A stretch of 32,403 nt of DNA from the NCBI GenBank assembly GCA_964632315.1, contig CAZWEM010000051.1:1-32403 (forward strand). Reading direction: 5' to 3'. The stretch comes from an uncultured archaeon (GTDB lineage: Archaea > Asgardarchaeota > Lokiarchaeia > Sigyniarchaeales > SOKP01). The translations under genes were made by a program, and so were the position numbers. This document shows, in pieces, positions 15,712 through 19,184 of this stretch. Under the pieces are notes generated by a model. It searched no databases, had not been told where the DNA came from, and was given only the letters and a program-made list of their open reading frames with translations. Every line of letters begins with the position of its first letter. Positions within the stretch are counted from its first letter, which is position 1.

Positions 15712-15990
15712 GTGAAAATTATAAGTCTAGACAAATGGATCAAAACTGAAAAGAAAAAGAAGAAACAAGTTAAGAATAATGAAATTGTTAAAGTCAAAGA
15801 TGATGCTTCGAAGGATAAAAAAGATAAGAAGGAGGAATCAATTGAAATTTCCGATAAGTTTGAGAAATTTGAGCTTATCTGTAAAAATGCAAAGTGTAAA
15901 TATAAAAAAATATTAAAGAAAAAACGAATTTCTGAAAAAGATTTAATTTGTCCACGATGCAAAAACGAGATGAAGGTCAAAAAAATCTAA
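15712..15990 (+). CDS. Small Lys-rich zinc-ribbon protein
   Basis: C-terminal CKNAKC...CPRC; highly charged N-half; GTG start. Confidence 0.65.
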   Translation: MKIISLDKWIKTEKKKKKQVKNNEIVKVKDDASKDKKDKKEESIEISDKFEKFELICKNAKCKYKKILKKKRISEKDLICPRCKNEMKVKKI

Positions 15991-16232
15991 TGCTTTTTTG
16001 GTAGATTCTTTAAGTCAAACTGGGTTTCACAATTCGGGCATCTATCTTTTCTTTTACTAAATAATAATATAAAATATACTATTACCCCGATCCCCGCAGT
16101 AAAAAGTATCATAAAACATAAGATTTCATGATAGATATGATCAAAATTTTTTCGTCTTAATATAACTTCTCGTTCACATGTAGGACAATAAACTACTCTA
16201 TTCCCCGTTAGAATTAACCTTTTTTCGATCAT
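15987..16232 (-). CDS. LITAF-like zinc-ribbon membrane protein (CxxC-hydrophobic-CxxC)
   Basis: YCPTC ... ILCFMILFTAGIGVIVYFILLF ... RCPNC architecture. Confidence 0.7.
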   Translation of the reverse strand: MIEKRLILTGNRVVYCPTCEREVILRRKNFDHIYHEILCFMILFTAGIGVIVYFILLFSKRKDRCPNCETQFDLKNLPKKH

Positions 16233-16298
16233 TTAATTAAATATCTTAAGGTTTTATCATTAAATTATTTTATGAATGTGGTAAATAGAAAGAAATCT

Positions 16299-16445
16299 TC
16301 ATTCTTCTTTTTTCTTCGTTAGTTTAGTCAAGAGATCCCAAGTACTGTTTACTCCAAGCTCTTTAAGTTTTTCTCGCTCCTCTTTTAATTCCTGGTCAGT
16401 TAATTCCTTATCTTCTTCATTAATTTTTTTTCCCTTTATAGACAG
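16299..16445 (-). CDS. Small charged protein (about 48 aa), not in the ORF track; start codon uncertain (CTG)
   Basis: Manual translation (L)SIKGKKINEEDKELTDQELKEEREKLKELGVNSTWDLLTKLTKKKEE*. Purine-rich coding-like composition; fills the gap upstream of the LITAF-like gene on the same strand. Confidence 0.45.
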   Translation of the reverse strand: MSIKGKKINEEDKELTDQELKEEREKLKELGVNSTWDLLTKLTKKKEE

Positions 16446-16578
16446 CTCAATTATGTAAATATATGATCCTAATGTTAATATATAAATCTATTTTTAGAGG
16501 TTCGTATAGGCTTAATATTAAAAGAGTTAAATTATATATCATTTTATATAGAAGAATTATATACTCAGATCATAGAAT

Positions 16579-17541
16579 TTGCCAATTTGTTATCATTGTG
16601 GAGAGAACGTCACTGAAACGCATATTTGTGAGAGATGTGGTAAAACTTATTGTTCACTCCATAAAAATCCGATAGATCATGAATGCAATCTTGTGGTAGA
16701 ATCAGAAAGGTTACAGACAACCTTAACTCCAAATTATGTAACTCAAAGAGCTTTTCAAGTTCCCTCAGGAACTCAATCAGAACTAAGAGGGACAACGGAT
16801 GGAACTTATACTTGGTATCGCCAAGAAAAGCAAATCCCGGATAATGCTTTCGATCCTGATTCAGGAATTCAATTTAAAGGTATACTATTGGCGCATAAAT
16901 CGGAACTTACTCATTTTATGATTGGAGCGGTATTGATTTTTCTTATCGGTATTATTTCATTTTTTGAAGTTGTTTATGCCGGCTATCTTTGGGCGCTTTT
17001 TTTACTCTCTACTTTTTATATGACTGCTTTCTTATTTCATGAATTTGGTCATAGACAAACTGCTATACATTTTGGATTGCAAACTAAATTTCGTTTGCTT
17101 ACATTTGGAATGCTCTTGACTGTCTTTAGCCTTATTATGGGACTTTCAAGTTTAATTACTGGATCCGCTTTATTTCCCATGCTTGCATTGCCAGGTGCTG
17201 TTGTTGTCTTAGGATTAGATAAAATTAGTAGAAAAACCGGTTTATGTAAGGCTGCTGGACCAAGCGTGAATTTAATTTATGGTACTATTATATTATTGAT
17301 CTCGTTCGTAATTCCTCGTCAATATTATCCGTTGAACCATTTTTTTGGTTATGCAGCTTACTTCAATTTTATGCTCGGTTCATTTAATATGATCCCATTA
17401 GGAATATTAGATGGTCAAAATATCTGGAGATGGAATAAGCGAGTTTATATCTCACTGATTGTACCTTTAATTGTCTTGTTAATCCTAACTTTAATAATGA
17501 TTAATGCTCCCGTTGGATTAAATCCTTATTTTCCAATATGA
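16579..17541 (+). CDS. AN1 zinc finger fused to M50 (site-2 protease family) intramembrane metallopeptidase
   Basis: CYHC..CERC..YCSLH..DHEC AN1 pattern; HEFGH, AAGPSVN and NMIPLGILDG M50 motifs; multiple TM segments. Confidence 0.9.
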   Translation: MPICYHCGENVTETHICERCGKTYCSLHKNPIDHECNLVVESERLQTTLTPNYVTQRAFQVPSGTQSELRGTTDGTYTWYRQEKQIPDNAFDPDSGIQFKGILLAHKSELTHFMIGAVLIFLIGIISFFEVVYAGYLWALFLLSTFYMTAFLFHEFGHRQTAIHFGLQTKFRLLTFGMLLTVFSLIMGLSSLITGSALFPMLALPGAVVVLGLDKISRKTGLCKAAGPSVNLIYGTIILLISFVIPRQYYPLNHFFGYAAYFNFMLGSFNMIPLGILDGQNIWRWNKRVYISLIVPLIVLLILTLIMINAPVGLNPYFPI

Positions 17542-17605
17542 TAAAATTTATCATGATCACTAGATTATACTCTATATAATATTAAGATCTATAATTTGAT
17601 ATTTT

Positions 17606-18526
17606 ATGTCATTTTGTGAATTTTGTGGAAATGAAATAGGATATTTACCTTTTAAATGTAAATATTGTGGAGGGACATTCTGTAAAAAACATCGATTACC
17701 AGAAAATCATGAATGTTCTTTTGAATTAAAACATACACCCGTAGTGCCGTTAGCTAGAAGAGAAAGAACATTTAGCTCAACACAAGCAAGGCGGAATCAA
17801 CGAGTAAAACAACCAAGAAGGTTACGAAGGTATTTAAAAAGGCAAGATGAACCAATAAGTTTACGTCCAAGGAGATCTCCTAAATGGAGGACGAATTTCC
17901 CCGCCACAAAAAGCTTATTATTACTAATTATAACAATTTCCATTATTGGTTCTATTTTATATAATTATGGATTGGGTTCTTATATCTTTTTTAGCTTGTA
18001 TGGGCTTTATAACAATTTTGCATTTCATACGATCCTAACCTCACTTTTTATTACTAATTTTGATATATTTAGCTTCGCATTCTTCATTGAAATCTTTTTC
18101 ATGGTAATCATGTTATTCTTTACATACCTTCTTTCTAGATCAATTGAAATTGCTTTAGGATCTTGGTTTTTAATCAAGCTTTATCTAATATCAACTCTCT
18201 TCTCTGTTCTCTTCTACACGCTCCTCAGGTTGACTTTAATTGCTGTTGCACCAATTCAGTCTTTTGCTCTTCTTAAAGGTTTTGCATGGGGAGGGATCTT
18301 AGGTTTAATTTCTTATTCTTTATTTCCAGTGATGAACCAAGAAATAACAGCATTAATGATGATAATCCCAATGCGGATGAAAGGAAGATCCTTCCTAATC
18401 ATAATTATCTTGCTAAGACTTTTTCCCTTACTAATTGATCCATTAGCCTTCTGGTTCTATCTTCCCGATCTTGGGGGGATTCTTGGAGCTTATCTCTTAT
18501 TTAAATATCAGCAGAGAAGAATCTAA
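17606..18526 (+). CDS. AN1 zinc finger fused to rhomboid-fold membrane domain lacking catalytic residues
   Basis: [26 protein letters not shown]; rhomboid-like [26 protein letters not shown] (for GxSG) and DLGGILG (for HLGG). Confidence 0.8.
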
Positions 18527-18527
18527 A

Positions 18528-19184
18528 TTGCCTGAAGAAAAAACCTTAAAAATAATCGAATTAAATGAAGATTTAATTGCTAACAATGAGAGATTAGCTG
18601 CTCAGAATAATGCTCTATTCAAAAGTTTTAATTTAAAATCCTTCGATATAGTTGGAGCCATCGGGGCGGGTAAAACAGCCATATTGGAAGCAATTACAAA
18701 AAAGTTAGCCAATAAAATGAAAATTTTAGTCATAAATGGCGATGTAGCAACTAGAATAGATGCCGATAGAATTGAAAGATATGGGGCAAAAGCCGTACAA
18801 GTGAATACAGGAAGAGAGTGTGCTTTAAATTCATATCATATATCCCAAGTATTAAAGAATTATGATTTGAACTCTTTTGAAGTGGTCTTTATAGAAAATG
18901 TTGGAAATTTGATATGTCCATCCGACTTTATTTTAGGGGCGGAAAAAAGAATTGTTGTTGTATCCATTACCGAGGGTGAATGGGTAATTCAAAAACATCC
19001 CTTGCTTTTTAAGACATCAGATATCGCTATAATCAATAAAATTGATTTAATAGATGTAATGGAGGTAAATCTTGATGGGATGATTAAAGATGCCAAAAAT
19101 ATTAATCCTAATCTCACAGTTATAACTGCCAGTGCTAAAACAGGTGAAAATATATCAAAACTTATTCAAATTCTAGAGATTTAG
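18528..19184 (+). CDS. hypB: Hydrogenase nickel incorporation GTPase HypB (short form)
   Basis: GAIGAGKT, GDVATRIDA, NTGREC, ENVGNLICP, SITEG, NKID, SAKTG. TTG 18528 immediately follows the upstream stop (track start 18471 overlaps it). Confidence 0.93.
   Translation: MPEEKTLKIIELNEDLIANNERLAAQNNALFKSFNLKSFDIVGAIGAGKTAILEAITKKLANKMKILVINGDVATRIDADRIERYGAKAVQVNTGRECALNSYHISQVLKNYDLNSFEVVFIENVGNLICPSDFILGAEKRIVVVSITEGEWVIQKHPLLFKTSDIAIINKIDLIDVMEVNLDGMIKDAKNINPNLTVITASAKTGENISKLIQILEI

Follow-up and report, generated by a model that had tools for sequence, protein, structure and literature searches.

Why would an archaeon keep, side by side, two genes whose products have unrelated intramembrane-protease folds and each begin with an AN1 zinc finger, when one of the two products lacks the residues for cutting? 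The question is raised by a contig of an uncultured archaeon (GTDB lineage Asgardarchaeota; Lokiarchaeia; Sigyniarchaeales; SOKP01; assembly GCA_964632315.1, contig CAZWEM010000051.1), of which all 32,403 nt, hereafter called the window, were analysed. Named database relatives of the window's proteins are proteins from metagenome-assembled genomes labelled Lokiarchaeota, Promethearchaeota, or other Asgard archaea. The two genes encode a site-2 (M50) protease and a rhomboid-fold pseudoprotease (here, the pseudo-rhomboid), with the following features:

16579..17541, plus strand: AN1 zinc finger and M50 (site-2) intramembrane metalloprotease, 320 aa, TTG start
16588-16689, in the M50 gene: AN1 finger
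17038-17052, in the M50 gene: HEFGH
17386-17415, in the M50 gene: NMIPLGILDG
17606..18526, plus strand: AN1 zinc finger and rhomboid-fold pseudoprotease, 306 aa, ATG start
17615-17725, in the pseudo-rhomboid gene: AN1 finger, followed by a basic linker
about 17888-18523, in the pseudo-rhomboid gene: six-helix domain
18287-18289, in the pseudo-rhomboid gene: Trp228, at the position of the catalytic Ser
18467-18469, in the pseudo-rhomboid gene: Asp288, at the position of the catalytic His

It is probable that these two genes work together in the proteolysis of membrane proteins, because they stay together across the whole order. To follow the pairing, 300 genomes of the phylum were searched with the pseudo-rhomboid, as well as with a profile of its membrane domain alone; for the M50 protein, the search covered 80 genomes of the order. 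In the window's family, the M50 gene is followed by the pseudo-rhomboid gene on the same strand, 60-200 nt apart, in 55 of the 61 sampled genomes. The remaining genomes comprise three in which contig ends split the pair (G138, G201, G222), two with the M50 gene only (G168, G198), and one in which neither gene was seen (G153). In a sister family the pair is adjacent in 6 of 7 genomes, and in four genomes of this family (G089, G213, G285, G288) the order is reversed, with the pseudo-rhomboid gene preceding the M50 gene. Three of the reversed loci were read (G089, G213, G285). MAT, hypB, and a gene for a LITAF-like protein, which belong to the surroundings of the pair in the window's family, are not nearby in these three, and the M50 proteins (450-466 aa) carry an N-terminal FHA domain in place of AN1. 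The FHA-M50 genes of the sister family are located as follows:

L006, 5774-7174: FHA-M50 gene
L007, 3354-4748, minus strand: FHA-M50 gene
L011, 5183-6535: FHA-M50 gene

What is kept is the pairing and not its surroundings, since the two genes remain together where the locus is rearranged, the neighbours are others, and a domain has been exchanged. As the pair is adjacent in nearly all sampled genomes of the order, the arrangement is not due to chance. A search with the rhomboid part for fused M50-rhomboid or longer forms (537-2000 aa) returned none, which is weak evidence. Prediction of a complex between M50 residues 66-320 and pseudo-rhomboid residues 68-306 gave a score of 0.00, which speaks neither for nor against binding.

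The M50 gene begins with a TTG two codons past an in-frame TAG. Its product matched Pfam Peptidase_M50 (PF02163) with 36.9 bits (cut-off 27.2) and Pfam zf-AN1 with 21.9 bits, under the cut-off of 27.9. A comparison with 38 relatives (59-91% identity) showed the following elements to be invariant: (i) H154, E155, and H158 of the HExxH motif; (ii) N270, P273, D278, and G279 of the motif NxxPxxxxDG, which holds the third zinc ligand; (iii) all eight zinc ligands of the AN1 finger (C4, C7, C17, C20, C25, H28, H34, and C36); and (iv) a long juxtamembrane motif, RGTTDGTYTWYRQE..P.NAFDPDSGI.FKGIL. The family profile matched the structure of the Methanocaldococcus jannaschii site-2 protease (3b4r_A) with E = 1.1e-6. 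The AlphaFold2 model of the protein was poor (mean predicted local distance difference test, pLDDT, of 60.6), and a Foldseek search with it, which placed 3b4r at rank 4 (E = 1.6), was uninformative; the assignment to M50 is based on the motifs and profiles and not on this model. Judged by these motifs, the active site of the site-2 protease is intact. One other M50 protein is encoded in the genome.

The second protein matched Pfam zf-AN1 with 44.7 bits. C-terminal to this finger lie a very basic linker and then six hydrophobic helices. No match to Pfam Rhomboid (PF01694) was obtained for the window's protein itself, but 27 of 63 members of its family matched at E <= 1 (best E = 4.8e-6). The sister-family ortholog in G213 reached 30.9 bits (cut-off 22.6). 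Alignment of the family with the genome's own canonical rhomboid by hhalign gave E = 7e-4. An AlphaFold2 model built from 63 sequences reached a pLDDT of about 90 over residues 95-306. VIA-align superimposed it on GlpG with Z = 14.9 (167 of 177 residues, root-mean-square deviation 3.1), on human Derlin-1 with Z = 14.7 (182 residues), on iRhom1 with Z = 13.0, and on yeast Der1 with Z = 9.9. The 40 best chains all have the rhomboid fold (39 natural members of the superfamily and one designed rhomboid-like fold), and the next, unrelated chain followed at Z = 4.0. With Foldseek, the 33 best PDB matches were all GlpG. According to this model, the protein has a six-helix rhomboid fold.

The catalytic residues of rhomboids are lost from this fold. 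Helix 4 carries GFAW228GG where rhomboids have GxSG, and Trp228, which is nearly invariant among 63 relatives, aligns with the Ser of GASGA. Helix 6 carries YLPD288LGG where rhomboids have AHxxG; each of the 18 relatives compared residue by residue has Asp or Glu at position 288, and Asp is the consensus of the 63 sequences. The His and Asn of helix 2 (HxxxN) are not kept either, the family consensus being hydrophobic there (ffLxIMLFF), without a conserved His or Asn. The one ordinary rhomboid of the genome carries WR, HxxxxN, GASGA, and AHLFG. By its motifs, the protein is a pseudoprotease without catalytic residues. It is a maintained protein and not the product of a decaying gene, because residues remain invariant (E181, G185, R208, G225, P287, G290, and G291) or nearly so (W228-G229-G230) among relatives of 45-88% identity. 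The loop after helix 4 is strongly conserved as well (MN.EITALM.FIP.RMKGRSF), and E181 corresponds, as read from the alignment, to the structural Glu of ordinary rhomboids. A preliminary description of the locus had read it as two adjacent genes for unrelated intramembrane-protease folds with N-terminal AN1 fingers, one an M50 protease and the other a pseudo-rhomboid; this reading is borne out by the intact M50 site (HEFGH, NMIPLGILDG), by Trp228 and Asp288 in the rhomboid fold, and by the full set of eight ligands in both fingers.

Within the 300 genomes, the membrane-domain profile detected the pseudo-rhomboid only in the window's family (63 of 68 genomes) and in the sister family (7 of 7); elsewhere it produced four weak matches at the level of canonical rhomboids (<= 58 bits). 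Matches outside the order that had been taken for candidate AN1-rhomboids were rejected, as they are AN1-M50 proteins (269-326 aa) caught through their AN1 finger and hydrophobic segments. The preliminary description had put forward synteny across Asgard archaea as a check, and a pairing that is not conserved as a ground for refutation; the pair is kept in the two families, so that this ground falls away, and among the genomes searched the pseudo-rhomboid was found in this one order only. An exhaustive profile search with the pseudo-rhomboid family yielded 88 clusters at E <= 1e-10. The nearest relatives keep AWGG or variants of it, e.g. SSWG and SVQWAA. A few (P0244, P0245, P0248, P0250, P0254) keep the serine (GxSGA, as in GLASGA), still without the His, the position of which is taken by Asp or Glu. 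By their motifs, these orthologs look like intermediates of active-site loss, or like proteins with a different chemistry. One of them, P0244 (L026, 4001-4930), is found in another assembly within an M50-rhomboid-hypB arrangement, beside a full AN1-M50 gene. The ortholog in G165 (L005, 3987-4940, minus strand) has SSWGA as its helix-4 motif and PQHFGS as its helix-6 motif; visual inspection places a His at the catalytic-His position, in contrast to QYFGG in the close relative P0251. Further down the list, beginning at about E = 1e-12, the matches are ordinary rhomboids with GASGA and AHLGG, and an AN1-rhomboid with all catalytic motifs, P0384, is among the distant matches. This series of motifs fits descent from active AN1-rhomboids of the kind of Haloferax volcanii RhoII.

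Both AN1 fingers follow the pattern C-x2-C ... C-x2-C-x4-C-x2-H-x5-H-x-C, with all eight ligands invariant in both protein families. With domains of only about 33 residues, the following identities are rough. The pseudo-rhomboid finger shares 39% identity with the finger of the neighbouring M50 protein and 50-79% with the fingers of AN1-M50 proteins from other classes. The finger of the window's M50 protein shares 30-39% with the pseudo-rhomboid finger's relatives in those classes and is closest (52%) to the finger of the third and only other AN1 protein of the genome. These values suggest that neither finger of the pair can stand in for the other. The third AN1 protein (484 aa) combines AN1 with a JAB/MPN+ domain of the deubiquitinase type (JAMM motif HSHP..S..D). 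The neighbours of its gene encode an alpha-amylase and a SpoU methyltransferase and nothing related to ubiquitin:

L023, 2294-3748, minus strand (contig C26 of the window's genome, G000, about 52293-53747): AN1-JAB gene

AN1 is, in eukaryotes, a domain of proteasome and Cdc48 cofactors. The pseudo-rhomboid finger matched that of yeast Cuz1 (5ij4, 'CDC48-associated ubiquitin-like/zinc finger protein 1'; E = 1.4e-6) and that of ZFAND5 in a proteasome complex (7qxw; E = 0.004). Four Cdc48-type proteins, PAN-type ATPases, and ubiquitin-family proteins are encoded in the genome, none of them near the pair.

We favour, with confidence a little above even, a working pair in the cytoplasmic membrane, in which an active site-2 zinc protease would be joined by a non-cutting rhomboid-fold partner. 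Rhomboid folds bind and destabilise transmembrane helices. The partner may accordingly be a receptor that binds transmembrane segments of client proteins through its fold and presents them to the protease, or else a gatekeeper that restrains it. Rhomboid-fold proteins in the service of another protease have precedents in iRhom with ADAM17 and in YqgP with FtsH. Physical or functional coupling of the two proteins is what we infer from these observations. The N-terminal AN1 fingers should face the cytoplasm, where they would presumably dock cytosolic factors. By the positive-inside rule, the basic linker after the pseudo-rhomboid finger fits a cytoplasmic N-terminus.

The remaining features around the pair are as follows:

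15712-15990, plus strand: lysine-rich protein of 92 aa with a C-terminal CxxxxC..CPxC zinc ribbon
15987..16232, minus strand: LITAF-like zinc-ribbon membrane protein, 81 aa, divergent from the M50 gene
16233..16578: divergent intergenic region, 346 nt; TATA-like, AT-rich stretches lie 20-45 nt ahead of the M50 start
17542..17605, plus strand: spacer between the M50 and pseudo-rhomboid genes, 64 nt
18528..19184, plus strand: hypB (Ni-insertion GTPase; TIGR00073, 228.8 bits)

The TATA-like stretches of the divergent region may serve as promoter elements. In the spacer, a TATATAAT-like stretch precedes the pseudo-rhomboid ATG by about 27-33 nt; it is TATA-like and could provide this gene with a promoter of its own. 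In the region 18471-18530, the longer open reading frame listed for hypB overlaps the pseudo-rhomboid gene by 56 nt. Because alignments of its homologs begin at residue 19-27 of this frame and a TTG, a candidate start, sits 2 nt past the pseudo-rhomboid stop, hypB probably starts at 18528. In the window's family, the syntenic block reads orf334, HTH-CBS, MAT, small zinc ribbon, LITAF-like, M50, pseudo-rhomboid, hypB, and hypB follows downstream of the pair in most of this family. We considered hypB as a functional member of the module and rejected it, as it is adjacent only within this family-level block; in the sister-family loci it lies 2 kb away or was not found.

The LITAF-like gene had been named in the preliminary description as divergent from the pair. 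Its divergent position and its identity are real: the protein matched Pfam zf-LITAF-like (PF10601) with 27.6 bits (cut-off 23.8) and has the CxxC knuckles CPTC and CPNC around a hydrophobic stretch of 22 aa. An ortholog divergently adjoins the M50 gene in most of the window's family, even in G168, where no pseudo-rhomboid was found. In several genera an insert of 2.6-2.9 kb parts the two genes, and no ortholog was found beside the pair in genus g4 or in the sister family; the other families of the order gave only three weak matches. As the link amounts to family-level synteny, with inserts and with no copy beside the sister-family pair, membership in the module was rejected. The LITAF-like family is multi-copy, with four matches in this genome and up to seven in relatives, where paralogues also form tandem arrays of two or three genes (e.g. 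G219, contig C123; G195, contig C44). In the window's genome the paralogues lie in open frames of 128-186 aa:

G000, contig C32, 10655-10831: LITAF-like paralogue
G000, contig C39, 44858-45019: LITAF-like paralogue
G000, contig C24, 14249-14437: LITAF-like paralogue

Two further neighbours were noted. The 92-aa zinc-ribbon gene, which is without a Pfam family, converges on the LITAF-like gene, shares 4 nt with the 3' end of that gene, and is kept beside MAT in both the window's family and the sister family. In three sister-family loci, a gene that encodes 427-683 aa, among them a DPPY motif like that of methyltransferases, and thus a large protein, directly adjoins the pseudo-rhomboid gene and seems to be a conserved neighbour of it there:

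L005, 2015-4015: DPPY methyltransferase-like gene
L006, 2165-4216: DPPY methyltransferase-like gene
L011, 2744-4027: DPPY methyltransferase-like gene

Several observations weigh against a working pair. Synteny in the window's family extends over all genes from MAT to hypB, so that most adjacency counts from this family are not independent of each other, and the spacer has a TATA-like stretch of its own, so that the two genes need not be co-transcribed. Furthermore, AN1-M50 genes without a rhomboid-like neighbour were found at ten loci outside the order, where nine of the genomes belong to other Asgard classes and one to a different order within the window's class; the protease therefore does not need the partner. 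Three genomes from a third family of the order likewise have AN1-M50 but yielded no pseudo-rhomboid, and none was found in genus g7 of the window's family. Because other classes have AN1-M50 without such a neighbour and the pseudo-rhomboid occurs in two families only, the AN1-M50 protein is, on this distribution, the older and phylum-wide component, to which the dead rhomboid is an order-level addition. All this would suit membrane proteins that function independently and whose genes adjoin owing to history or regulation, the M50 protein serving in ordinary regulated intramembrane proteolysis and the dead rhomboid, for example, as a chaperone or scaffold: the M50 gene does occur alone (in other classes, in the third family, and in one genus of the window's family), block synteny is extensive, and the spacer may hold a promoter. 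We nevertheless consider independence rather doubtful, as drift alone is not expected to keep an adjacency that, in the sister family, outlasts reversal of gene order, loss of all other shared neighbours, and a swap of the M50 N-terminus.

The other alternatives concern what the proteins do. In a process resembling endoplasmic-reticulum-associated degradation (ERAD), as the preliminary description had proposed, the dead rhomboid would recognise and partly dislocate faulty membrane proteins as Derlins do, the M50 protease would clip them, and the AN1 fingers would recruit Cdc48 or the PAN-proteasome, perhaps via ubiquitin-like tags, for extraction and degradation of the pieces. The matches of the pseudo-rhomboid finger to Cuz1 and ZFAND5 are in line with such cleavage and extraction, as are the Cdc48-type, PAN-type, and ubiquitin-family genes of the genome, the fusion of its only other AN1 protein to a JAB/MPN+ domain, and the superposition of Derlin-1 on the model, which is as good as that of GlpG. 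The presence of FHA instead of AN1 on the M50 protein in part of the sister family indicates, however, that the pair can do without an AN1 dock common to both proteins. Moreover, the fingers are of different types (just 39% identical), and the genes beside the AN1-JAB gene have nothing to do with ubiquitin. No specific affinity to Derlins was apparent: the WR motif of Derlins is absent, and DER1 is not among the best 25 of the 38 Pfam families matched by the 63 members. A simple equivalence with Derlins is made less likely by the FHA variant and by the absence of WR, and ERAD-like extraction, which builds on the roles of AN1 fingers in eukaryotes, is speculative and in our view unlikely. Quite unlikely, too, is a broader version in which the pair would represent an archaeal forerunner or analogue of the logic of ERAD, with an AN1-docked dead rhomboid selecting clients, the site-2 protease clipping them, and a cytosolic AAA+ ATPase removing the fragments, an arrangement that would have arisen in this Loki-type order when the pseudo-rhomboid was added to the phylum-wide AN1-M50 protein. 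Finally, the rhomboid-like protein might still be a protease that uses other residues, e.g. the conserved Asp/Glu288 together with Glu181. The invariance of E181, the uniformly acidic position 288, and the five orthologs that combine a GxSGA serine with Asp or Glu at the His position could be read in this way. We hold it to be highly improbable, given that the nucleophile position is Trp in the window's gene and most relatives, that the His and Asn of helix 2 are not kept, and that E181 has its counterpart in the structural Glu of ordinary rhomboids.

A working pair of an active M50 protease and a non-catalytic rhomboid partner would offer a tractable two-gene system in the archaeal lineage closest to eukaryotes. 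It could serve to ask what the rhomboid fold does when it is not cutting, how site-2 proteases receive their clients, and whether AN1-mediated docking to AAA+ unfoldases predates eukaryotes; the exchange of AN1 for FHA and the two types of AN1 finger are ready natural variants for such questions. Rhomboid pseudoproteases are known as eukaryotic factors of quality control and trafficking, namely Derlins and iRhoms. A literature search, for which most subscription journals were out of reach, found no description of the pair or of an archaeal dead AN1-rhomboid, and the literature within reach described no dedicated and strongly conserved dead prokaryotic rhomboid that is AN1-tagged and genetically tied to an active intramembrane protease.

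Among known systems, the nearest in architecture is RhoII of Haloferax volcanii, an archaeal membrane protein with an N-terminal AN1 finger followed by a six-helix rhomboid domain, which confirms the earlier statement that an AN1-rhomboid is known in Haloferax. RhoII is described as a protease (PMC4343526) and has the catalytic dyad, whereas the Asgard protein has Trp for Ser and Asp for His and has lost the His and Asn of helix 2; the accessible part of that report mentions no paired M50 gene. YqgP (GluP) of Bacillus subtilis, an adaptor of FtsH (PMC7231995), likewise joins a prokaryotic rhomboid fold to a cytosolic N-terminal domain and hands membrane clients to another metalloprotease for quality control. 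YqgP differs in being catalytically active and in having the ATP-dependent FtsH as its partner, and the accessible part of its description does not present the two genes as a fixed pair. The AN1-M50 proteins of other Asgard classes share the architecture and motifs of the window's M50 protein and have no rhomboid-like neighbour.

With the Derlins (Der1, Dfm1, Derlin-1), the pseudo-rhomboid shares a rhomboid fold without catalytic residues and a last helix with GxxxG (G290..G294, where G294 is nearly invariant and G290, like G291, fully so), and by analogy its cytosolic extension could dock an AAA+ ATPase. The docking element of Derlins is a C-terminal SHP box, whereas here it would be the N-terminal AN1 finger. 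Also unlike Derlins, the pseudo-rhomboid has F-H-T at the WR position of loop 1, followed by a conserved TSLF, and its partner gene encodes a protease and not a ubiquitin ligase; in fold it is no closer to Derlin-1 than to GlpG (Z = 14.7 versus 14.9). The iRhoms differ by a large luminal domain between helices 1 and 2 and by an N-terminus that is long and lacks AN1, whereas the Asgard protein has short loops (loop 1 comprises only about residues 121-158 in the model) and AWGG instead of GPxG. Their partner ADAM17 is a single-pass ectodomain sheddase, in contrast to the intramembrane M50 protease of the Asgard pair. In its logic, however, the pair resembles iRhom1/2 with ADAM17 (PDB 9xy4 and 8snl; Z = 13.0 and 11.3), where an active zinc metalloprotease has a dedicated partner in a dead rhomboid.

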